The notes under the pieces were generated by a model, which saw only the letters and a list, made by a program, of their open reading frames with translations, was not told the DNA's origin and searched no databases. Shown piece after piece: positions 749 to 55,427 of a DNA stretch of 55,427 bases (position 1 is the first letter of the stretch; the number at the start of each line of letters is the position of its first letter). Location: positions 1 to 55,427 of the forward strand of contig CAINXS010000052.1 in assembly GCA_903854995.1 (NCBI GenBank). Direction: 5' to 3'. The stretch comes from Candidatus Moraniibacteriota bacterium. Lineage in GTDB: Bacteria > Patescibacteriota > Minisyncoccia > Moranbacterales > UBA1568. The position numbers were made by a program, and so were the translations under genes.

Positions 749-3736
749 CTACACCACCACGTTCACTAGCTTCCTGGGGACGACAATGATACGCTTGGGC
801 TCCTTGCCGTCAAGATACGACTTCACCTTGTCGCTGTCGAGCGCATGCGTTTTCAGTTCGTTCTCGCTGGCGTCGGCCGGAATTTCGAACGAGTCTCGCA
901 TCTTGCCGTTCACCTGTACGACGATTTTGACGGTATCGGACACGAGGTATGCCGGGTCAGCCTCGGGCCAGGCGGCCAACGAGACGGAGCCGGTATTCCC
1001 GATACCTTCCCAGAGTTCCTCCGCGATATGCGGCGCGAACGGCGACAGTATCCGCAGGAAGAGTCCGAACGATCGGCTTGAAATCGACACCTCCTTCTCC
1101 ATGGCATTCACGAGAATCATCATCGAACTGACCGCCGTATTGAATCGCATGGCCTCAATGTCCTCGGATACCTTCACGATTGTCTTGTGCAACAACGAAT
1201 CAATCGTTTTCACCTTCTGTTCCTGCTCCCCTGTTGTCAGTTGTGAGTTTTCAGTTGTCAGTCCGAATTCTTCCGTTGTGAGTTGTGAGTTGTGAGTTGT
1301 GAGTTTTTCTTGCAGTTTCCAGACCCGTTCCAAAAAGCGTCGCGATCCCACCAACCCGTTCTGCCCCCAGGCGATCGGCTGATCGAACGGCCCCATGAAC
1401 ATCTCGTAGATGCGGAGTGTATCCGCTCCGAAATCCGAAACGATATCGTCGGGATTGATGACGTTCCCCTTTGACTTCGACATCTTCACGCCGCCCTCCG
1501 CAAGGATCAATCCGTGCGAGGTTCGCTTCTGATACGGCTCGGACGTCGGCGCTACGCCGATGTCGAACAGGAACTTGTTCCAGAACCGTGAATACAGGAG
1601 GTGCAGCGTCGTATGCTCCATTCCCCCGTTGTACCAATCGACCGGCATATATCGCTTCAGCTTTTCCGGATCGGCAAGCGCCGAACCGTTCTTCGGATCG
1701 ATATAACGCAGGAAGTACCACGAGGAACCGGCCCAGTTCGGCATCGTGTCTGTCTCGCGTTTCGCGGGTCCGCCACAAGTCGGACAGGTCGTATTCACCC
1801 AACTCCCCATTTTTGCCAGCGGAGATTCGCCGGTATCGGTCGGACTGTATCCACCGTCGATCTCCGGCAGTTCGAGCGGGAGTTCCGACTCGGGAAGCGC
1901 GACGATGCCGCATTGCTCGCAGTGCACGACCGGAATCGGCTCGCCCCAATACCTCTGGCGGGAAAAGACCCAATCGCGAAGCTTGTACTTCACGACTTTT
2001 TTCCCGTTCCCGTCGGCTTCGAGTTTCGTTGATATCTTTTCCCGTGCCTGAGACGATGAAAGTCCGGAAAACTCATCGGAGTCCGTCAATGTCCCGTCGT
2101 CGACGAACGCTCCGTCTTTCCCGTCGAGACGCGCGAGCCAAAAATCAAGTTCCGCGCAGGTCATCTCCCGATTCCGTATCTCGTCCAAAGAGAGCCAGAG
2201 TATCGAATGCTTCGCAGCCTCTTCCTCGACGACCCTTTCACGGGTGTCGTCCTCCAACTCGAAGAGAAGCGCCGACGTATTGGCTATCCGATTCTCGTCC
2301 TTATGCGCCGCAAAATATTCGCTTTGGACCTTTCCCCCGAGCGTTTCGATATACTTCAAATTGGAATACCCGGTCTCCTCAAGCACCTCACGCATCGCCG
2401 CCCCCACGACATCCTCGCCGTTTTCCACGCCTCCGACGATGAACGTGGTCCAGGGATGATTTTTCCATTCCAGACAGAGAAATTTCCCGTCCTTCGGGTT
2501 CCTTACGAGCGCATGGATGGTATCTCGCTCGACGGTCTTCTTCCCTTCCCGGGGAGGATTCTTTTTGTCGGTCAGATGAGGCATCACGACCGTCCTGACC
2601 GGAAGGTCGTACTTTTTCGCGAACGCGTAATCACGCTCGTCATGTGCCGGGACTGCCATCACCGCTCCGGTCCCATAATCGCCGAGCACGTAATCCGCGA
2701 CAAATACCGGGACCGCCTCGCCGTTTATCGGGTTGACCGCCATCAGTCCTTCCAACCGCACGCCCGTTTTTTCCCTCCCTTCGGCCGTCCGGTCCATCTC
2801 GGTCTTCTTCTTGGTCTCTTTCAGATAAGCGGCAACTTCTTCCCAGTTCCTGATTCCTGATTCTTGATTCTCAGATTCCGTTCCTTCTTCATTCTTAATT
2901 CCTGATTCCTGATTCTTTACTAAAGGATGCTCCGGTGCGACCACTACGTAGCTGCAACCGAAAAGCGTATCGACCCGCGTCGTAAACACCTCGATGCTCC
3001 CTTGCCTGATTCCTGATTCCTGATTCTTTATTCCAAACTCAATTATCGTTCCCTCGCTCCGACCGATCCAGTTGCGTTGCTGTATCTTTATCTTTTCGAG
3101 ATAGTCCACCGTATCGAGGTCGTCGTGCAGCCGATCGGCATACCTCGTAATAGCGAGCATCCACTGCTCCTTCTCGCGTTTCTCGGTCTCATTCCCACAT
3201 CGTTCGCACTTTCCGTCGATCACTTCCTCGTTCGCCAAGCCGATCTTGCACGACGGGCACCAGTTGATCATCATCTTCGCCTTGTACGCGAGTCCCTTCT
3301 TCAACATCTGCAGGAAGATCCACTGCGTCCATTTGAAGTACGCCGGATCCGTGGTATTGATCTCGCGCGACCAATCGAACGAGAATCCGATACCTTTGAG
3401 TTGTCGGCGGAAATTGTCGGTATTCTGACGCGTAACTTCCCGGGGATGGATACCGGTCTTGATGGCGTAATTCTCGGTCGGGAGCCCGAACGCGTCCCAC
3501 CCGATCGGATACAGCACGTCGAACCCCTCCATTCGCCGTTTCCGCGCGACGATATCCATGGCGGTATTGCTCCGGATATGTCCGATATGCAGGCCCTGGC
3601 CGGACGGGTATGGGAACTCGATCAGGCAATAGTACTTCGGTTTTTCGGAATCGTCATGCACCAAAAACGCCCCTTGTTCCTCCCATTTCGCTTGCCATTT
3701 TCCCTCGATCGTTTTGGGGTCGTATCTCCCTTGCAT
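749..3736 (-). CDS. leuS: leucyl-tRNA synthetase with a nested Nudix domain and in-frame repeat insertions
   Basis: HIGH motif (PSGQGLHIGH), KMSKS, the CP1 editing region and YKLRDWVFSRQRYWGEPIP are present. The ATG at 3736 (MQGRYDPKTIEGKW) fits the homologous N-terminus. The ORF track start at 3757 is a GTG. Confidence 0.95.
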   Translation of the reverse strand: MQGRYDPKTIEGKWQAKWEEQGAFLVHDDSEKPKYYCLIEFPYPSGQGLHIGHIRSNTAMDIVARKRRMEGFDVLYPIGWDAFGLPTENYAIKTGIHPREVTRQNTDNFRRQLKGIGFSFDWSREINTTDPAYFKWTQWIFLQMLKKGLAYKAKMMINWCPSCKIGLANEEVIDGKCERCGNETEKREKEQWMLAITRYADRLHDDLDTVDYLEKIKIQQRNWIGRSEGTIIEFGIKNQESGIRQGSIEVFTTRVDTLFGCSYVVVAPEHPLVKNQESGIKNEEGTESENQESGIRNWEEVAAYLKETKKKTEMDRTAEGREKTGVRLEGLMAVNPINGEAVPVFVADYVLGDYGTGAVMAVPAHDERDYAFAKKYDLPVRTVVMPHLTDKKNPPREGKKTVERDTIHALVRNPKDGKFLCLEWKNHPWTTFIVGGVENGEDVVGAAMREVLEETGYSNLKYIETLGGKVQSEYFAAHKDENRIANTSALLFELEDDTRERVVEEEAAKHSILWLSLDEIRNREMTCAELDFWLARLDGKDGAFVDDGTLTDSDEFSGLSSSQAREKISTKLEADGNGKKVVKYKLRDWVFSRQRYWGEPIPVVHCEQCGIVALPESELPLELPEIDGGYSPTDTGESPLAKMGSWVNTTCPTCGGPAKRETDTMPNWAGSSWYFLRYIDPKNGSALADPEKLKRYMPVDWYNGGMEHTTLHLLYSRFWNKFLFDIGVAPTSEPYQKRTSHGLILAEGGVKMSKSKGNVINPDDIVSDFGADTLRIYEMFMGPFDQPIAWGQNGLVGSRRFLERVWKLQEKLTTHNSQLTTEEFGLTTENSQLTTGEQEQKVKTIDSLLHKTIVKVSEDIEAMRFNTAVSSMMILVNAMEKEVSISSRSFGLFLRILSPFAPHIAEELWEGIGNTGSVSLAAWPEADPAYLVSDTVKIVVQVNGKMRDSFEIPADASENELKTHALDSDKVKSYLDGKEPKRIIVVPRKLVNVVV
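1233..1306. repeat. GTTGTSA heptamer word block inside leuS coding sequence
   Basis: The DNA reads tgttgtcagttgtgagttttcagttgtcag...gttgtgagttgtgagttgtgagttgtgag. It is translated in frame as LTTHNSQLTTEEFGLTTENSQLTTGE. Confidence 0.9.
2123..2545 (-). other. Nudix hydrolase domain inserted inside LeuRS (about residues 405-545 of the ORF)
   Basis: A complete Nudix box, GGVENGEDVVGAAMREVLEETGY (GX5EX7REUXEEXGU), is encoded at about 2366-2434. The insert sits between FAKKYDLPV and the conserved GTLTDSDEFSGL...YKLRDW block. In E. coli LeuRS (recalled sequence) only a short linker of roughly 20 aa separates these two blocks. Confidence 0.85.
2849..2917. repeat. ATTCCTG/ATTCTTG heptamer word block inside leuS coding sequence
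   Basis: The cctgattcctgattcttgattctcagattc...attcctgattcctgattc stretch is translated as KNQESGIKNEEGTESENQESGIR. Confidence 0.9.
3008..3025. repeat. third in-frame ATTCCTGATTC copy in leuS (encodes NQESGI)
   Basis: The sequence ctgattcctgattcctgattc was read directly. Confidence 0.85.
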
Positions 3737-4330: not shown

Positions 4331-4690
4331 TCATTTCACAAGTGTTTTCTTTAACCCACCAAGCTGATTTGAAATCCCATCTATCCGTTTCATCGCCTCA
4401 TCATACCGATCTTCTTGAACCATCCCGTTTAATTTCAACGCATCCATTGCCGCCATTGTCTCATATAGGGAACGGAGCGAAATATTCAGAAAACGATTCA
4501 GTTCCTTATCAGTCGTTTTTCCGCTTCCTTCCGCGATATTAAGCGCTACCGACAAGGCGGCACGGATCATCTGGCTACCTATTTCGAAACGGAATTCTTT
4601 CGGTAGATCCTTAACAATTTTCAGAACAAGGGAAAAGAGCTCCTGCGAATCATTGTATACTTTCCATTTCCTGAACCGAAATTTCTCCAT
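4331..4690 (-). CDS. four-helix-bundle protein (23S rRNA intervening-sequence protein / DGR Avd family)
   Basis: The 119-aa product carries KWKVY...QMIRAALSVALNIAEGSGKTTDKELNRFLNISLRSLYE, characteristic of this family. Confidence 0.85.
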   Translation of the reverse strand: MEKFRFRKWKVYNDSQELFSLVLKIVKDLPKEFRFEIGSQMIRAALSVALNIAEGSGKTTDKELNRFLNISLRSLYETMAAMDALKLNGMVQEDRYDEAMKRIDGISNQLGGLKKTLVK

Positions 4691-4730
4691 ATCATTTACT
4701 GCTTCGAATCACCCCCCGTTCCCAATTCCC

Positions 4731-6268
<1,538 letters not shown>

Positions 6269-6420: not shown

Positions 6421-6500
6421 TTTTCTTTATTCTTAATTCCTGTATCTTTGTTCTTCATTCCCAATTCCTCATTCCTTATTCTTTATTCATAATTCTAATT
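6421..6500. repeat. ATTCC/ATTCTT-type word block (right arm, inverted relative to 6192-6268), overlapping the atpG stop
   Basis: The sequence ttttctttattcttaattcctgtatctttgttcttcattcccaattcctcattccttattctttattcataattc was read directly. Confidence 0.85.
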
Positions 6501-7414: not shown

Positions 7415-7449
7415 CGCCCCCACCCACCCTGTCCCAATCCCTATCCCCG
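7415..7449 (-). other. six consecutive G3-5 tracts on the mRNA-sense strand (G-quadruplex-type motif) between the two arms
   Basis: The minus strand reads GGGG ATA GGG ATT GGG ACA GGG T GGG T GGGGG. Confidence 0.6.
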
Positions 7450-7487
7450 TTGTAAGTTGTTGGTTGTAAGTTGTTCGTTTTCCTTCG
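7450..7487. repeat. GTTGT-type word block (right arm, inverted relative to 7385-7414)
   Basis: The sequence ttgtaagttgttggttgtaagttgttcg was read directly. Confidence 0.8.
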
Positions 7488-9071: not shown

Positions 9072-9100
9072 GCCCGGATGCCTCGTTTGGCTTCGGCATC

Positions 9101-9138
9101 ATTCCTTATTCTACATTCTTTTTTCTTCCTTTTCATTC
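9101..9138. repeat. ATTCC-type word block (right arm, inverted)
   Basis: The sequence attccttattctacattcttttttcttccttttcattc was read directly. A GATGCC...GGCATC hairpin (9077-9100) sits between the arms. Confidence 0.8.
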
Positions 9139-9332: not shown

Positions 9333-9665
9333 ATGAAAAGAGCTTATCTCATATCTTTTGTTGTCCGCTCCGTTGACAACGCCGACCGAATCATGTCCGC
9401 CTATGTTTATAGCGGCATCGACGTTCAAACAGTCCCAGGACTCAACACCGTTAAACAAACGATAGCTAAGTCCGGGCTTGTAATGTCGAATGCTTACCCC
9501 GCCGTCCACATCATCGCCTGCCAGCTCCTAAACGATTCTCCCGAATCATGCGAGGAGCAGCTATCTCAGCTGATTGAAGTCCGAGAACTCGTAAAATACG
9601 AGACCGGACTTCCGTGTCAATTTAGAGATCCAGTCATTGACTTGGAAAAGCAAGTCATGTACTGA
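9333..9665 (+). CDS. hypothetical protein (110 aa) in the AT-rich islet, antisense to the atp operon
   Basis: The ORF is bracketed by a consensus promoter and an intrinsic terminator. I recognise no family for it. Confidence 0.55.
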   Translation: MKRAYLISFVVRSVDNADRIMSAYVYSGIDVQTVPGLNTVKQTIAKSGLVMSNAYPAVHIIACQLLNDSPESCEEQLSQLIEVRELVKYETGLPCQFRDPVIDLEKQVMY

Positions 9666-9935
9666 CGACGCGACAAAATTCACAGCAAACCTATCTGGTT
9701 CAAAACCAGATAGGTTTTTTATTCCCCGTTTTTCAAATCTACTATCAGGGCTCGATATACTCGGATCCTGAATGGTGTATTCAAAAGGGATACGTATTGT
9801 CGAATAACTAGGATGGTTTAATGGCTCATTCTTTTTTTCCGTCATCGCGAGGATTCCGTCCTCGGAATCCGTGGCGATCCAGACATTCAGACGGTTCCGG
9901 GTTTCCTGGATTGCTGCGCTCATCCATCGCTCCAT
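9561..9935 (-). CDS. hypothetical ORF (MERWMSAAIQ...); doubtful
   Basis: The frame is open in an AT-rich region. However, it reads through the terminator hairpin and overlaps the 3' end of the plus-strand gene by about 105 nt. Confidence 0.25.
   Translation of the reverse strand: MERWMSAAIQETRNRLNVWIATDSEDGILAMTEKKNEPLNHPSYSTIRIPFEYTIQDPSISSPDSRFEKRGIKNLSGFEPDRFAVNFVASSVHDLLFQVNDWISKLTRKSGLVFYEFSDFNQLR
9687..9722 (+). terminator. rho-independent terminator
   Basis: AAACCTATCTGG-TTCAAAA-CCAGATAGGTTT has a 12-bp stem and is followed by TTTTTTATT. Confidence 0.85.
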
Positions 9936-9975: not shown

Positions 9976-10088
9976 CGTTGTCGGTTGTCAGTTTCCTGTT
10001 GTGAGTTTTCCATTCCCTGTTGTTCGTTGCTCGCTATAAGTTGTAAGTTTCCTCATCCGTTGTCAGTTGTTTGTTGTTAGTTGTAGGT
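9976..10088. repeat. long GTTGT-type word block overlapping the atpH stop
   Basis: The DNA reads cgttgtcggttgtcagtttcctgttgtgag...ataagttgtaagtttcctcatccgttgtcagttgtttgttgttagttgtagg. Confidence 0.85.
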
Positions 10089-10484
10089 CGAATTTTTCAG
10101 TGTTCCCTTCATCTCCCGCAACCTCCGGCCGACGGACGCGTCGAGCACTTCGTCCTCCGAGGAGAGCCGAACGCCGCCGAGGAGCTCCGGAAAGACGACA
10201 TACGAGACGACGACTTCGCGGTCCGGAAACGCCTCGTGAGCAGCTGCTTCGACTCCGCGGCGCATTGTGTCGTCCGCCAGGATGGCCGTCTCGGCGAGCA
10301 CACGGACACGCCCCGCGGCATGATCAATCTGCTGTTCGGCTACGCGGACGATATCGTCGAGCTTCCGCATCGCGTGGCGTCGCCGCACAAACGACAGAAA
10401 CGATGCCGCGACACGCTTCACATCACCATTCTCCGCGGAGAGGGCGACCAGGACCTTGGCATATTGTATCGGAGTGATTTTCAT
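10077..10484 (-). CDS. atpH: F1 ATP synthase delta (OSCP) subunit
   Basis: Its position between atpF and atpA supports the call, as does delta-like MKITPIQYAKVL...ELLGGVRL. The ATG at 10484 is preferred over the TTG at 10520. Confidence 0.8.
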   Translation of the reverse strand: MKITPIQYAKVLVALSAENGDVKRVAASFLSFVRRRHAMRKLDDIVRVAEQQIDHAAGRVRVLAETAILADDTMRRGVEAAAHEAFPDREVVVSYVVFPELLGGVRLSSEDEVLDASVGRRLREMKGTLKNSTYN

Positions 10485-10522
10485 TGCCGGAAATGATTGT
10501 TCTATTGCCTCATTGCTCAATT

Positions 10523-10634
10523 GTCATCCCGGGCGAGTCTTCGAGTCGAGGGATCTGCGTATGCCTTCGGCAGATTCCTCCGCTCCGCTCCGTTTCACTC
10601 CTCCCGCATGCGCGGGACTTTGGGTCGGAATGAC
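10523..10634. mobile_element. MITE-like element, GTCATCCCG...CGGAATGAC termini, family 1
   Basis: It has terminal inverted repeats and an internal GGATCTGC...GCAGATTCC hairpin. It is closely related to 53360-53464. It lies between atpF and atpH. Confidence 0.8.
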
Positions 10635-14953: not shown

Positions 14954-15025
14954 AGGAAATGTATCATGCGTACAGACGGGTCACCGGAGAAAAATCGAGA
15001 ATCATGAATAAAGAATCAGACATTT

Positions 15026-15117
15026 GTCGTTCCGGACTCTCGACCGGCGAATGCGCGGTTGATCCGGAATCCATACTCCGGAATTCCTGGATCCCGGGTC
15101 AAGCCCGGGATGACGAC
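15026..15117. mobile_element. MITE-like element, family 2 (GTCGTTCCGG...CCCGGGATGACGAC)
   Basis: It shares CCGGCGAATGCGCGGTTGAYCCGGAATCC with the copy inside ileS (34672-34731). Confidence 0.75.
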
Positions 15118-17971: not shown

Positions 17972-18097
17972 GTCATTCCGACCCGGAGTCCGGCGAATGC
18001 CGGAGAGTCTTCGAGACACGTCGTTCGCGAGCGACTGTGTCGAGTGGAGGAATCTGCCGAGTCACGATTCAGATCCCTCGACTACGATCGGGAAGAC
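17972..18097. mobile_element. MITE-like element, family 1 in reverse orientation with a family 2-like end module
   Basis: Its reverse complement aligns along its length with 33926-34030. Confidence 0.75.
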
Positions 18098-33925: not shown

Positions 33926-34030
33926 GTCGTCCCGAGCGTAGTCGAGGGACCTGCGATCGTTTACCGCAGATTCCTCGACTCGACACGGTCGTTCGCGAAT
34001 GACGCGCCTCGAAGACTTGCTCGGTATGAC
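33926..34030. mobile_element. MITE-like element, family 1
   Basis: The ends are GTCGTCCCGAGCG...CTCGGTATGAC. It aligns with the reverse complement of 17972-18097. Confidence 0.8.
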
Positions 34031-34048
34031 AAATGTGAATGGATTCAC

Positions 34049-37000
34049 CTATCGGTTCTTCTTGAGCGAGAACGCGAACGGTTCACCTTCGATGTCTGTC
34101 GTGTCGCGATAGTCGGCGTCCGCGATATCGCCGCGGACAATCTCCGTCGCGAGCGTCTCGCGCGCGATCTCGTCGCCGAAGCCGGAGAGATTCTCCGCCG
34201 TATCGCCGTCGAACACCTTCTCCTTGCCGAGGATACCGAGCGTAATCCGATCGCTCACCTCGAACCCAGCCTTCTTCCGTCCTTCCTGAATAGCGCGAAT
34301 GATTTCGCGCGCCTCGCCTTCGAGCTTGAGCGCTTCATCAATTTCCAAATCTAGACATACCATATCCGCTTCATCTCCCTTTATCCAGGCAATACATTTC
34401 CATCCTTGCTTCTCCGCTTCGATGTCGGTCAACAATCCGGTCCGCTCAACCGACTTTACGTTTAGTTCTTCACGTATAATTTCATCGTATACGTCCGACA
34501 ACCCATCGGTTATGACTATCTTTCGCAACGGCTGGCGGACTTTCATTCCTGAATCCGCCCTCATCTGAAGTCCGAGACTTACGATGACGCGGACGGCATG
34601 CATCTCCTTACCCAGCTTCTCATCAACCAATTTCTCCTTCACCTCCGGCCAGTCGGCAAGATGCACCGACTCCGGGATATTCCTGGATTCCGGGTCAACC
34701 GCGCATTCGCCGGTCAAAAGTCCGGAATGACAATTCATAAGGTTCCGATAGATTTCCTCAGCGACAAACGGCGTGAACGGCGCCATAAGTTTCGAAAGCG
34801 TGACGAGCACTTCGTACAGCGTCGCGTATGCATCGTCCTTGTCGCTATCGTTCTCATTTTTCCAGAAGCGTTTCCGGTTCCGGCGGATATACCAGTTCGA
34901 GAGATCGTCAACGAACGGCATGAAGAGACGCGTCGCCTTCTGCAGGTCATATGCCTCCATGGCCGCGTCGATATCGCGGATCAACACCTGCAATTCCGAA
35001 AGGATCCATCGGTCAAGGATATCGATCGATTGTTCACGATTCTTCTTCGGATCCCATCCATCGATCGAGGCGTACGTCGTGAAGAACAAATACGAGTTCC
35101 ACAACATTCGGAACAGGTTGCGCGTCGATTCCGACAGCTCGCGCTCCGAAAAGTTCAGGTTCTCCGCGGATACGATCGGCGAGGAAAGCAGATACAGTCG
35201 GAGTGCGTCCGATCCGTGCTTTTCCAAGACTTCCATCGGATCCGGATAGTTCTTCAGCTTCTTGGACATCTTCAGACCGTCCTCCGCGAGCACGATACCG
35301 TTCACGGTGACGTTCTTGTACGCGACACTGTCACGAAGTCCCGTCGCCATGACATGCAGGTAGTAGAACCAGGCGCGTGTCTGGTCGATGCCCTCGGCAA
35401 TGAAGTCGGCCGGGAACCGCGAATCGAACGATTCCTTCCCCTCGAACGGATAGTGCGCCTGCGCGTACGGCATCGACCCCGAGTCGAACCACGTATCGAG
35501 CACATCCGGAATCCGTCGCATGACGCCACCGCACTTTTCGCACGGCACGGTTATCGGATCGACGACGTGCTTATGTAAATCGGCGACGACCTGTCCACTC
35601 GCCTGTTCCAGTTCGGCGACCGATCCGAACACGCGCATCTCGCCACACTCACATTTCCAGATCGGCATGACGGACGCCCAGTACCGCTGCCGACTAATGG
35701 ACCAGTCGCGCGCACCCTCGAGCCACTTCCCGAATCGGCCGGCCCTCACGTGCTCCGGCGACCAATGGATATCCTTCGCGAGTCCGATCGCTCGTTCTTT
35801 CAGATCCGTCACCCGGATGAACCACGAACTCGTCGCGTAATTGAGGAGCGGTGTATCGCACCGCCAGCAGTGCGGGTAGCTGTGTTCGAACTTCTCCTTG
35901 GAAAACAGCAGGTTTTCTTTTGCGAGGTATCTGATTATTTGAATATCCGCATACTGCGGGTCATCTTTGTCCTTAACCTTGATACCTACCCACAGTGTAT
36001 CAGTGCTCTCTTTCGTATCAGTAAAAAGCCGATAAAGATCTTCATTATGATAGACAATATCTTCATTCAACCGCCCGTCGATACCTACATGCTGTACAAA
36101 AGGAAGGTTATATTTCTTCCCGAGCGCCATATCGTCCTCGCCGAATGCCGGCGCGATATGCACCACTCCCGTCCCGTCCTCGGTCGTCACGAAATCCGCC
36201 GCATAAATCTTGTATGCAGTTCCGTCTTCATCAAACTTTTCTCTTTCCTTTGCTCCTTCGAAAATTTTCTTTGACCTGTCACTAAGCCGTTGTCTGACTG
36301 CAAACTGAGGAGCGATCGATTCATTGGATCCCTGTTGTTTTAAGGACCTCGGCGTTTTCTTATCGGTAATTATATCTTTCAGATAACCAAACAGCGGCTT
36401 GTAAGATTTCGTTACAAGTTTTTCTCCTAAAAACTCGTCAATAACTCTCGGTTCAGAAGGCGGAACTTCATTAGGCCCTATTGCTTTTGCAGACGGAAAG
36501 AGCGTGTCTTTATTGCGCTCATAAATTGATTTGGCGAGTATGAAATACTCAGGTTGTCCCTTTGCATTATCATAACTTACTTTCACATACTCGATATCCT
36601 TCCCCATGGCCAAAGCAACGTTCCCAGGAAGCGTCCACGGAGTCGTCGTCCACGCAAGCACATAGGTACCCGGCTCGTCGACGAGTTCGAATTTCGCGAT
36701 GACCGAAAGGTCCTTCACATCCTTGTATCCCTCGCTCACTTCCTGCTGCGAAAGCGTCGTCTCGCATCGCGGGCAGATATGCATCGAGCGATAATCCTCG
36801 TAAACAAGCCCTTTGTCCCAAAGCTCCTTGAACACCCACCAGACCGACTCCATGTAGTCGCGGTCCATCGTCTTGTAAGCGTTCTCCATATCCGCCCAGC
36901 GGCCGAACCGGTGCATGACCTTCTTCCAATCCTCCGCATACTCGAGCACCTTGGACCGGCAGATGTCATTGAACTTCGCCACGCCGAGCTCCTCGATCTC

Positions 37001-37403: not shown

Positions 37404-37781
37404 TCAGACCTTCAGACGATCATTCGTATATTTTATCAGACTGTTGATTTCCTTCGGGAAAGAACTGAGGGCCATAAATGTCCGATCATAATCCTTTTGC
37501 TCAATCAGCTTCCTTCTCTTCGATTTCTCCAACCAATCCAATGACTCATATGAGGAAGCCCTCGCTATCCGATAAAAGAAGACTTTGTCTTTCTTCCCAT
37601 ATCGACCGAATCCCTCCGCAATATTGGCGGATATCGAATCAATAGCCCTCACGAACTGCGATCCGACCGTTTTTCGAGGAAAATCATCCCACTTTACGAC
37701 GATATCCCAAACTTCGTTCGAAAGTGAAAACGCGAGCCGATATGCGTTGATTTTGTTCAATGTCAGATATTCATCTCCCAT
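37404..37781 (-). CDS. four-helix-bundle protein (23S rRNA IVS protein / Avd family), second copy
   Basis: The 125-aa product carries AYRLAFSLSNEVW...QFVRAIDSISANIAEGFGRYGKKDKVFFYRIARASSYE. Confidence 0.85.
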   Translation of the reverse strand: MGDEYLTLNKINAYRLAFSLSNEVWDIVVKWDDFPRKTVGSQFVRAIDSISANIAEGFGRYGKKDKVFFYRIARASSYESLDWLEKSKRRKLIEQKDYDRTFMALSSFPKEINSLIKYTNDRLKV

Positions 37782-41595: not shown

Positions 41596-41994
41596 GGGGT
41601 TGTCTAGTTTCGACAGCGTGCTCTTTCAGAACCGGCAAGCCGATGCGGGGAGTCATCGAAAAAAATCCCCACATATGATATCTGCCAACATCACACAGAA
41701 AGTGAAGGCAGCGTTCGCCTCGGCGTTCGCCCCGTCCTTCGCTTCCGTTCTCGCCTAACTTCGGTTTGCGGAACCATCGGACCCCCGACGCCTGATACGG
41801 GAATTCCGGTGCCATACCATCAGGCGGACCAACAAGGGTCTTTCTTCCCTTCACTCTGTTGGCCCGGCATGAAAGGAAGCCCTGGAAAGATTTTCGTCGA
41901 TCTTTCCGCTTTTCAGGGAACCAAAGGTCGACTACGCTTGTAGAAGGTTCTGGAAGGATTCGTCTGGACATGGGTGCGATTCCCATCAACTCCA
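41596..41994 (+). ncRNA. ssrA: tmRNA (transfer-messenger RNA)
   Basis: The 5' end is GGGGUUGUCUAGUUUCGACAGCG. The 3' end is GGACAUGGGUGCGAUUCCCAUCAACUCCA. The acceptor GGGGUUG/CAACUCC includes the G3-U pair. The tag reading frame GCC AAC ... GCC TAA is at 41684-41758. The gene lies directly after smpB, and the terminal CCA is not encoded. Confidence 0.9.
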
Positions 41995-41996
41995 CA

Positions 41997-42048
41997 GGAA
42001 GCTGCCGAAGCTTCGAAAGCTTCTGAAGCTGCAATAGCTTTCGGAGCC
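41997..42048. repeat. GAAGCTT-type word block immediately 3' of tmRNA
   Basis: The sequence ggaagctgccgaagcttcgaaagcttctgaagctgcaatagctttcgg was read directly. Confidence 0.8.
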
Positions 42049-53468: not shown

Positions 53469-53584
53469 TGTTGTCAGTTGTTTGTTGTCAGTTGTTTGTT
53501 CCCCGTTGTCAGTTGTAAGTTGTGAGTTGTAAGTTCGTAATCGTCAGTCATTCTTCCGTTGTAAGTTGTCAGTTGTTTGTTATC
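53469..53584. repeat. long GTTGT-type word block from the MITE to the mnmA stop
   Basis: The sequence ttgtcagttgtttgttgtcagttgtttgttccccgttgtcagttgtaagttgtgagttgtaagttcg...gttgtaagttgtcagttgtttgttatc was read directly. Confidence 0.9.
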
Positions 53585-54662
53585 AGTTTTCCGAGATAAT
53601 CCCCGAACCGAGGCACTCGTCCCCACGATAAAACGCTGCGATCTGCCCGGCCGCGATGCCGGTATCACCATTCGCGATCGTAACGTGTCCGCAACGTTCC
53701 CGAAGGGACCCCATTGGGGCCGACTGGATCGAAAGCGTGCATGGATATTCCTGCACTCCGTGACGGAGTTTCACCGTCAGTCGATCGTCCACGTCCGGTG
53801 CGTCCGAGATCCATGAAAGACCGTCGACATGGAATTCCGATCGCGCCGTTTCCGAGCTGCGATACGCATTCGATATATAAACGATATTCTTCGCAGTATC
53901 CTTTCCGGTCACGTACCAGGGGCCGCCGGAAAGCCCTATTCCCTTGCGCTGGCCGATCGTATAGAACCAAAAGCCCTGGTGTTTTCCGAGCGTCTCACCG
54001 GTCTTCGTGTCGACGATATCCCCTTCACGCGTCCCGAGTTTCTCCTCGAGGAACCGATCAAACGGGACTTTCCCGAGGAAACAGATCCCCTGACTGTCCT
54101 TCCGTTCCGCACTTGAAAGTCCATACGTTCGCGCGAGTTCCCGCACCTCGTCCTTGCGATACCCACCGATCGGAAACATCGCCTTCACCAACTGATCCTG
54201 CCGAAGCCGGGAGAGAAAGTAGGTCTGGTCTTTATGTTCGTCGGCCGAACGCAGGAGCCGAGCCTTGCCGTCGCGGACCTCCGTCTGTGCATAGTGCCCC
54301 GTCGCCACATGGTCAAACTCGGCCCCGTACTCCTCGACGAACGCCCCAAATTTGATGAGCGTATTACAAAACACGTCCGGATTCGGCGTCCGCCCCGCTT
54401 TGGCCTCCGCGATCACGTACGACACGATCCGCTCGTGGTATTCTTTCTGGAACGGCACGACCGAGAGCGGTGCCCCCACTTCCTCGCAGACCGCGCGGAC
54501 ATATCTCAGATCTTCCTCCCACGGACATTCCCCCAGGAATGACAATTCGTCCTCAAGCCATATCTTGAGATAGAACGCGGTAATATCGTGCCCCGCGTCC
54601 TTCAGAAGACGCAGAGCGACCGAACTATCCACCCCGCCGGAAATAAGCATTGCAACTTTCAT
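53583..54662 (-). CDS. mnmA: tRNA-specific 2-thiouridylase
   Basis: The PP-loop MLISGGVDSS is present, with full-length MnmA similarity. Confidence 0.95.
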   Translation of the reverse strand: MKVAMLISGGVDSSVALRLLKDAGHDITAFYLKIWLEDELSFLGECPWEEDLRYVRAVCEEVGAPLSVVPFQKEYHERIVSYVIAEAKAGRTPNPDVFCNTLIKFGAFVEEYGAEFDHVATGHYAQTEVRDGKARLLRSADEHKDQTYFLSRLRQDQLVKAMFPIGGYRKDEVRELARTYGLSSAERKDSQGICFLGKVPFDRFLEEKLGTREGDIVDTKTGETLGKHQGFWFYTIGQRKGIGLSGGPWYVTGKDTAKNIVYISNAYRSSETARSEFHVDGLSWISDAPDVDDRLTVKLRHGVQEYPCTLSIQSAPMGSLRERCGHVTIANGDTGIAAGQIAAFYRGDECLGSGIISEN

Positions 54663-54709
54663 TGGGTTCCGTTATTGAAAAAGAATCGTAACACGAGATA
54701 CCGGACTTG

Positions 54710-55427
54710 TCATCCGGCCTCGATCCCGTACGAATCCCCTACCCGCCTCCGCAAGCCGTACGTGTTCCCATATCGGAGCAGTCCGAGATACGACTGAACC
54801 GTTTCCGGCTTGCCGTTCTTCGCCTCCAAGTTTCGGAACATCCGCCGCTTCGTCGCCATGCGCAGGACACGATGATCCGGGAAGTGCACCCACCCGAGGA
54901 AGTCTACACCCGAAGCGACCGTCGCAATGAATACCTTGTCCGGGTGAAGCGTGAGCACAAGACGCGAGTCGAGAAACTCCCTTATTTTCGGAAGCATTGA
55001 TTCCAGTTCGCCCCTGTCTGGCGAGAGTATCACGAAGTCATCTGCATAGCGAATATAGTATTTCGCGCGTATCGTGTGCTTCATGAACCGGTCGAACTCG
55101 TTCAGATAGACGTTCGCGAGGAGCTGAGACGTCAGATTTCCGAGCGGGAGCCCCTTTCCCGGTTCCGTATGGAAACTCCCAACGATCTCCGCGAGCAGTC
55201 CGAGGATATCGCGATCCGGGATATGTTCGCGCAGGATGCGAAGTAGGATATCGTGGTCGATGGAGGCAAAGAATTTCTTTACGTCGCACTTCAGTACCCA
55301 CACGGTCCGAGAATGATTACGGGACACCTTCCTGGATAACTTCTGGAATCGATCAAGCGCCTTGTGAATCCCTTTTCCGTCCCGGCAAGTTAAGTGGTCG
55401 GGTTTGTCAAACACGATAGTGTCGACA
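54710..55427 (-). CDS. reverse transcriptase of the diversity-generating retroelement (DGR) type; N-terminus lies beyond the window
   Basis: Motifs present: VLKCDVKKFFASIDHDIL, GLPLGNLTSQLLANVYLNEFD (the [IL]GxxxSQ signature) and YIRYADDFVIL. The frame stays open to position 55427. Confidence 0.8.
   Translation of the reverse strand, partial: VDTIVFDKPDHLTCRDGKGIHKALDRFQKLSRKVSRNHSRTVWVLKCDVKKFFASIDHDILLRILREHIPDRDILGLLAEIVGSFHTEPGKGLPLGNLTSQLLANVYLNEFDRFMKHTIRAKYYIRYADDFVILSPDRGELESMLPKIREFLDSRLVLTLHPDKVFIATVASGVDFLGWVHFPDHRVLRMATKRRMFRNLEAKNGKPETVQSYLGLLRYGNTYGLRRRVGDSYGIEAG

Follow-up and report, generated by a model that had tools for sequence, protein, structure and literature searches.

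A reverse transcriptase gene of a diversity-generating retroelement, probably split by an IS3-family insertion sequence, at a contig end of Candidatus Moraniibacteriota

The stretch analyzed here, referred to as the window, comprises positions 1 to 55,427 of contig CAINXS010000052.1 from a Candidatus Moraniibacteriota assembly (GCA_903854995.1). Its last open reading frame (ORF), which seems to run off the contig end, encodes a reverse transcriptase (RT) of the kind that belongs to diversity-generating retroelements (DGRs), systems with a template repeat (TR) and a variable repeat (VR). The gene belongs to a known Patescibacteria type of DGR RT, is fairly ordinary in itself and is interrupted by an insertion sequence (IS): comparison with related contigs points to an IS3-family element inserted after RT codon 96, with the contig stopping 38 nucleotides inside it. 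Taken as a whole, this explanation is held with high confidence.

The reverse transcriptase gene at the contig edge

The ORF lies on the minus strand and extends from the window edge down to a TGA stop, giving 238 residues when translated from 55426. It contains the motifs FFASID, LPLGNLTSQLLANVYLNEFD (55091-55150, which includes LPLGNLTSQ), YIRYADDFVIL, LHPDKV and GVDFLGW. Pfam RVT_1 matched it at 78.8 bits (cutoff 29.6), and nothing else from Pfam did. A preliminary description of this DNA had reported an RT with the DGR signature and a YADD box, an mnmA start 47 nt downstream of the RT stop, and a window free of TR and VR; LPLGNLTSQ, YADD, RVT_1 and the spacing were all confirmed, and a repeat search found no TR/VR-like repeat in the 55-kb window. 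The features at this edge are as follows.

53583..54662, minus strand: mnmA, the downstream neighbor, outside the element (Pfam tRNA_Me_trans families); it served as the anchor for fetching sister contigs
54663..54709: spacer of 47 nt between the RT stop and the mnmA start (ORF coordinates)
54710..54712, minus strand: TGA stop codon of the RT (ORF translation)
54713..55387, minus strand: 3' fragment of the RT gene, codons 97-321 of a 321-codon DGR-clade RT (protein identical to residues 97-321 of the L003 allele; RVT_1 match)
55037..55048, minus strand: YADD catalytic box, RT motif 5 (aligns to YMDD of Brt, the RT of Bordetella phage BPP-1)
55124..55144, minus strand: LGNLTSQ, the (I/V/L)GxxxSQ signature of DGR RTs, RT motif 4 (aligns to IGSLTSQ of BPP-1 Brt)
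55387..55389, minus strand: CTT, one copy of the 3-bp target-site duplication attributed to the IS (comparison of the L003, L140, window and L004 junctions)
55390..55427, minus strand: outermost 38 nt of the terminal inverted repeat of a ~1.25-kb IS3-family element, at the end distal to the transposase start (37/38 match to L124 1778-1815)

Window position 54783, 73 nt inside the 3' end of the RT gene, is the start of at least five independent contigs: L002, L005 and a further three for which no DNA was available. These starts mark a further branch point in the population and may reflect a single-nucleotide polymorphism bubble at k = 141.

The (I/V/L)GxxxSQ block in RT motif 4 is the signature of DGR RTs (PMC3521204). 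The closest intact allele, P0001 (321 aa, 98% identical to the window fragment), had its best PDB match, aligned end to end, in chain 8ub7_A (E 3.3e-43, 151 bits), a chain found by tblastn to be 100% identical to brt of BPP-1, whereas the best group II or retron-type PDB chains scored at most 74 bits against P0001 (E 1e-19 or worse). The group II RT/maturase model TIGR04416 gave 110.5 bits with the fragment and 147.2 bits with the intact allele (cutoff 300), the retron RT model NF038233 gave 60-65 bits (cutoff 235), and every score with the NCBIfam group II RT/maturase, Drt3a, retron (St85 RT) and Abi models was far under its cutoff. Group II intron RNA was not found in Rfam scans of five related loci and the window.

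Eighty loci encoding RTs 57-89% identical to P0001 were fetched from GTDB, nearly all of them from metagenome-assembled genomes (MAGs) of Patescibacteria, with Moraniibacteriota nearest. When pairs were counted only if at least 75% of their mismatches lay at adenines, a TR/VR pair with adenine-specific mismatches was present in 62 of the 80 loci as a direct repeat of ~100-140 nt. Across these 62 loci, 1020 of 1085 TR/VR mismatches fell on adenines of the RT-proximal copy, the affected base always being A on the RT strand. The geometry was constant, with the TR ending ~440-570 nt upstream of the RT and the VR lying ~470 nt upstream of the TR. In most of the 18 loci lacking a pair, the available sequence ended less than 700 nt ahead of the RT.

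Membership of the window RT in the DGR clade is well supported because of its motif, its similarity to Brt and the TR/VR pairs in homologous loci, in agreement with the preliminary assignment to the DGR type rather than to group II or retron RTs. That the RT comes from another prokaryotic class (a group II intron, a retron or a UG/Abi/DRT defense RT) is scarcely credible: the sub-threshold scores with the group II RT/maturase (110-147 bits), Drt3a and retron St85 models, and the label 'retron-type' that some sources attach to homologues, would fit such an origin, but these scores are far below the curated cutoffs (300, 200 and 235), the bit score with BPP-1 Brt is twice that of any group II RT and covers the full length, the homologues are accompanied by Avd and adenine-biased TR/VR pairs, and the protein is only ~321 aa long with RVT_1 alone in Pfam.

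An IS3-family element in the reverse transcriptase gene

Sister contigs, with flanks 99.5-100% identical to the window, were obtained by exact look-up of the mnmA protein. Over residues 97-321 the window RT is exactly the L003 protein, and the two genes share 99.5% nucleotide identity with four differences, all synonymous. Similarity of the window to the uninterrupted RT genes on L003 and L001 ended at 55389. The remaining 38 nt (55390-55427), which make up the first 13 codons of the frame, matched, among the sister contigs, L004 only, which extends 17 nt further. The residues ahead of the CRxGKG motif are S-[YF]-S in 111 of 111 full-length homologues and HLT in the window. The divergent edge stretch resembled positions 96-140 of L003, which adjoin a transposase-like N-terminus, and the terminal 27 nt of the window had no exact match in the GTDB representative genomes.

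A degenerate pattern built from the window-edge and L003 sequences was run on JGI metagenomes and found 48 stretches, most of them 57-88 nt from a contig end. In three records (L122, L124 and L126) two inverted matches lay ~1250 nt apart. Across ~50 copies the ends were invariant up to ...CCCGACCACTTAA or ...CCCGACCATTATA and the flanks beyond were unrelated; the ends TTAAGTGGTCGGG... and ...CCCGACCATTATA form imperfect terminal inverted repeats. The complete copy on L124 (1778-3033) encodes OrfA (109 aa) and OrfB (329 aa), with an A8 run within the overlap of the two. OrfB matched NF033516 (IS3 family transposase) at 270.6 bits (cutoff 160) and the Pfam families HTH_21, rve and rve_3; OrfA alone was sub-threshold at 24.8 bits. 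Window positions 55390-55427 correspond to the OrfB-distal end of this element with 37/38 identity, and are the sole such end in the window.

Two other accounts of the edge sequence were considered and rejected. The ends on L003 and L004 had been taken as the same end of two diverged IS copies, and the complete copies showed them to be the two different ends of one IS. A MAFFT alignment placed the first 13 residues of the window ORF on RT motif 0 with an internal deletion of ~50 aa, in a stretch that is IS DNA.

The product predicted for a simple insertion with a 3-bp duplication is RT residues 1-96 followed by Leu and a stop, and it was sought with RT residues 1-96 as the query. The predicted stub was found as P0121, a 97-aa protein ending ...FIADSYSL and encoded on L140. 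L144, from the same BUCK21-1 sample series as L004, carries a 97-residue RT stub and the same junction as L140. The site reads as follows in the three states.

L003, intact site: TATTCTTGCCGGG
L140, junction with the other IS end: ...TATTCTT followed by TATAATGGTCGGG
Window and L004: ...CCACTTAA followed by CTTGCCGGG

The CTT is duplicated at the RT site, and the element lies in the same orientation as the RT. Among copies elsewhere, GGG flanks that on L126, and no clean duplication was seen at L124. Both RT junctions are present in independent assemblies from two sample series. The apparent run-off of the ORF would follow from a contig end that lies inside the IS, where the assembly stops because the element is multi-copy.

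In place of an uninterrupted RT frame, the split gene would yield the 97-aa stub and a start-less fragment of 225 codons. The missing N-terminal 96 residues contain the PKPRHIHKASVRDRVVHRAV block, which we take to be the fingers region (RT motifs 1-2). The insertion is judged to be recent because the 3' fragment is still identical in protein sequence to intact alleles.

The preliminary description had regarded the RT as merely cut by the window edge, and on that reading an intact DGR RT would be truncated by the contig end with a working cassette directly beyond. The frame is indeed open to the edge, and sister contigs do hold intact alleles with avd and TR. This reading is nevertheless very improbable, as the RT sequence starts only at 55389 and is preceded by 38 nt of IS3 terminal repeat, HLT stands in place of the invariant S-[YF]-S, the reciprocal junction with its CTT duplication occurs on L140 and L144, and the independently assembled L004 has the same junction with 17 nt more of the IS. 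An assembly chimera at a repeat is scarcely credible either, even though the junction lies at a contig end and many contigs in these samples break at this IS: the same junction came from different assemblers and samples (the window, and L004, seen in two samples), and a chimera would not yield a complementary junction that coincides exactly in RT position and carries a 3-bp duplication.

The element is highly multi-copy in metagenomes Ga0209697, Ga0118677, Ga0073936 and Ga0116204 (contigs L092-L139), with ~50 ends found in unrelated surroundings. Most of these ends sit 57-88 nt from contig ends, which makes the element a major source of assembly breaks in those metagenomes.

The cassette in sister contigs and its state in the lineage of the window

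Where the cassette is intact in relatives, its order on the RT strand opens with a target gene whose C-terminal end contains the VR; after ~110 nt come the structured leader (~270 nt) and the TR with a 9-bp stem-loop behind it, next avd, encoded on the other strand, and finally the RT and mnmA. L001 is arranged as follows.

291-929, RT orientation: target ORF, 212 aa, with the VR at its 3' end
801-919: VR, within the 212-aa ORF
1254-1372: TR, 119 nt
1388-1765, opposite strand to the RT: avd (PF22296)
1775-2767: RT, with mnmA next

Between the L001 TR and VR there are 22 mismatches, and TR adenines account for 17 (Fisher p 2e-9; the TR has 28 A in 119 nt). With PF22296 the L001 Avd reaches 56 bits, above the cutoff of 40, and with NF033474 it reaches 75.9 bits (cutoff 80). 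The L001 target had no Pfam or PDB sequence match, PDB sequence searches with this target and with Avd returned nothing useful, and the targets of L001 and of L012 (a Moraniibacteriota MAG contig with an RT 89% identical) had no detectable homology to each other. L003 represents a second allele, B, in which avd and TR both differ from those of L001. The avd and TR of the lineage of the window were found on L003, L140 and L144; that these would lie beyond 55427, as predicted from the window, was borne out.

Two other arrangements were observed at the 3' side of the cassette. On L142 (1516-4383; flanks ~86% identical), from a more distant relative, 175 nt of the mnmA 5' end, 97% identical to the window, are repeated directly behind the RT, ahead of a NUDIX gene and the resident full-length mnmA; this suggests that the cassette was transferred along with a piece of mnmA. 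On L141 the same cassette has dnaJ downstream instead of mnmA.

The leader lies outside the window and extends for ~270 nt from a conserved start, GG(T/C)AGTAGGTGAATA, to the TR. It was aligned across 55 loci (L003:137-406 and 54 others; alignment A2) and covaries strongly. RNAalifold predicted 54 pairs in 11 helices, with compensatory changes at 43 pairs. Paired cells amounted to 95.4%, compared with 82.0% in shuffles (0 of 500 reached the observed value) and 36-51% when partners were slid, and changes on both sides were found in 502 cells compared with 139 in shuffles. None of five representative loci matched an Rfam family at E <= 0.1. The 9-bp stem-loop follows just downstream of the TR. 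Within the DGR RNA of this clade, the leader may act as a scaffold for RT-Avd.

Beyond the IS, L140 continues with the 5' part of the RT, avd-B, TR-B and the leader, followed by a second, inverted copy of the same IS. This second copy (L003:1-140 and L140:1-138; insertion site at L141:9800/9801) sits precisely at the junction of a TATCAT box and the leader's first conserved base. The two copies flank a 1.1-kb segment comprising the leader, the TR, avd and the 5' part of the RT. If the TATCAT box is the promoter of the leader, the leader may be severed from its promoter.

The resident TR, TR-B, lies at about 392-520 of L003, has the adenine-poor 3' end CCCTGTCCGCGGTTCTCGC, and is also present on L140 and L141. 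It resembles the TRs of many clade members, with 81% identity to that of L061, for example. A matching VR was found neither in the 55-kb window nor on L141 (20 kb, +-10 kb) or L142, and a protein search with the TR-encoded peptide returned short TR-spanning ORFs only and no VR-bearing protein. One of these short ORFs led to L141-L145; its exact look-up gave the longer contigs L141 (142 kb), L142 and L143, which contain an intact RT and an upstream gene. Adenine-specific TR/VR pairs, of which the preliminary description had expected one elsewhere in this genome, are present in L001 and in 62 of the 80 homologous loci; for the resident TR no VR was found in the sequence searched.

The upstream gene of L141-L143 is the orthologue of the L012 target gene. 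As a 261/279-aa gene (L141 and contig 0TQZOAPT) it had been a candidate target of the resident TR, and was rejected on the match of its VR to the TR of L012: the 3' end of the L141 gene (VR at 9583-9683) differs from the L012 TR at 26 positions, 19 of them at TR adenines (p 5e-10), and does not align to TR-B. L012 and L141 are ~93% identical through the leader and again past the TR, and the TRs in between are unrelated (regions compared: L141 10050-10185 and L012 1396-1491). This is an apparent exchange of the TR between conserved flanks. The VR region adjoining the cassette is 100% identical across L141, L142 and L143, which would not be expected under active diversification.

In the DGR family, and by inference here, the leader-TR RNA would be reverse-transcribed by the RT with Avd, adenines would be miscopied in the process, and the cDNA would replace the VR. 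In the lineage of the window, the 1.25-kb IS3-family element has most probably inserted itself behind codon 96 of the RT gene and left a CTT duplication; a second, inverted copy lies immediately upstream of the leader, after the TATCAT box; and the resident TR does not match the VR of the neighboring target gene. With a split RT, a leader that is perhaps detached from its promoter and a TR that is uncoupled from the VR next to it, the DGR of this lineage is most likely inactive.

Several points weigh against this conclusion. The window includes no more than 38 nt of the IS, and its linkage to the segment on L140 and L144 is drawn from the matching site and duplication. The insertion is polymorphic, since the same sample series also contains uninterrupted RT alleles (L003, L142 and P0001), and some members of the population may retain a live DGR. 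The promoter role of the TATCAT box is one that we infer. The VR for the resident TR may lie elsewhere in the genome, beyond the sequence searched. The allele-B Avd (L003/L140) aligns over its full length and falls just under the cutoffs (PF22296 37.9 bits against 40; NF033474 54 bits against 80).

One extension of these observations is that the template RNA is modular, made up of a conserved covarying leader, an exchangeable TR and the 9-bp stem-loop. The allele of the window would have swapped its TR, become uncoupled from the adjacent VR and possibly been retargeted to a remote gene, and the polymorphic insertions at the leader promoter and in the RT would represent population-level on/off states rather than simple decay. 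As a joint proposal this is unlikely.

A related alternative is that the junction is real but harmless, the IS-bearing form being a minor variant while the dominant genome keeps a working DGR whose resident TR diversifies a remote target. The coexisting intact alleles would agree with this, as would the similarity of the resident TR to functional TRs of the clade (81% to that of L061, as above), and remote targets of DGRs are known (PMC5758913). It is nonetheless quite unlikely, since the window contig, L004, L140 and L144 all bear the insertion, the neighboring VR is static across three assemblies, no cognate VR was found in the 55-kb window, the 20 kb around L141 or L142, and the TR-peptide search gave only short TR-spanning ORFs. 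An inactive DGR with a split RT is the preferred reading.

Relation to known systems and other features of the window

The preliminary description had also noted two orphan Avd-family genes in the window. The ORFs exist at the positions given.

4331..4690, minus strand: TIGR02436 / 23S_rRNA_IVP four-helix-bundle gene (TIGR02436 88.8 bits, cutoff 24; PF05635)
37404..37781, minus strand: TIGR02436 / 23S_rRNA_IVP four-helix-bundle gene (TIGR02436 83.1 bits, cutoff 24; PF05635)

With the DGR Avd model NF033474, the first gave 28.6 bits (cutoff 80) and the second no match, and with PF22296 the two gave 18 bits or no match (cutoff 40). From the translations, the first gene lies between atpC-like and atpD-like ORFs and the second upstream of a 1115-aa ileS-like ORF. 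The ORF lists around both contain no RT-like or other DGR-like product, and the window has no TR/VR-like repeat. Both are judged to be generic TIGR02436 proteins and not DGR Avd, so the Avd assignment did not hold.

Tandem heptamer arrays of GTTGTCA/GTTGTGA/GTTGTAA, and of a second type, TTCCTGA, occur at many sites in the window (1233-1305, 4714-4801, 7448-7479, 9977-10093 and 53469-53588; also 2847-2915, 3005-3034, 6423-6496 and 9100-9126). Those checked against the ORF lists lay between ORFs or at an ORF end, including sites next to the ATP synthase-like ORFs and around the 3' end of mnmA; one array is located in the gap between the 4331-4690 gene and the atpD-like ORF, with a short array on the other side of that gene. 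Dispersed repeats of 40-52 nt, direct and inverted and with 76-92% identity, were found at 10518-10585, 18006-18084 and 33940-34035 and at 15024-15073 and 34684-34733, and may be a small family like repetitive extragenic palindromes or miniature inverted-repeat transposable elements. A transfer-messenger RNA gene is located at 41596-41997 (Rfam 117 bits), with the tag peptide ANITQKVKAAFASAFAPSFASVLA.

The cassettes resemble the DGR of BPP-1 (Brt, Avd, TR and the mtd VR) in the full-length RT alignment (321 compared with 328 aa) with I/LGxLTSQ and a Y-x-DD box, in an Avd-family partner and an adenine-specific TR/VR pair, and in the 9-bp stem-loop just past the TR. A stem-loop downstream of the TR is reported for 207 of 278 Avd-type DGRs (bioRxiv 10.1101/2023.10.23.563531). 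Unlike that of BPP-1, the cassette here is chromosomal and adjoins mnmA rather than lying in a phage, and its avd is on the opposite strand between TR and RT. The conserved structured RNA here is on the 5' side of the TR; the RNA of Bordetella is described as lying to either side of it. Neither Pfam nor PDB gave a sequence match for the targets here, and an IS splits the window RT.

MAGs of Moranbacteria/Moraniibacteriota and other Patescibacteria supplied the closest RTs, and the system shares with the DGRs of Patescibacteria, or the candidate phyla radiation (CPR), a cellular setting in aquatic or groundwater samples and an avd-TR-RT core in non-Bordetella order and orientation. According to Wu et al. 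2018, whose 'CPR set' is the reference, the B3 avd/TR architecture accounts for 90% of CPR DGRs (PMC5758913). The cassette architecture here is likely B3. DGR clade 2 is restricted to Patescibacteria (Roux et al. 2021; PMC8144416). The window copy differs from these DGRs in being IS-disrupted, with a TR uncoupled from the adjacent VR.

The inserted element agrees with the IS3 family in its two overlapping ORFs, with an OrfB that passes NF033516 and has HTH_21, rve and rve_3; in the A8 run of the OrfA/OrfB overlap, where IS3 members have a -1 frameshift site; and in its imperfect terminal inverted repeats, 3-bp duplication and ~1.25 kb length. TG...CA tips are typical of IS3 members but were not seen here, the element ending in TTAAGTGG... 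and ...CCATTATA. It also departs from the family in that OrfA alone is sub-threshold and in that one complete copy (L124) lacks a clean duplication.

What had appeared to be an orphan DGR RT without a template is a standard Patescibacteria DGR whose RT was, as judged from these comparisons, recently split by an IS. The case warns that ORFs at contig edges should not be taken as intact genes, and that generic TIGR02436 genes should not be counted as Avd. Outside the window, the locus shows what appear to be successive stages of DGR decay in near-identical strains, namely uncoupling of TR from VR, insertion of an IS where the template RNA begins and insertion of an IS into the RT gene, together with an apparent TR exchange between conserved flanks and a covariation-supported RNA 5' of the TR.

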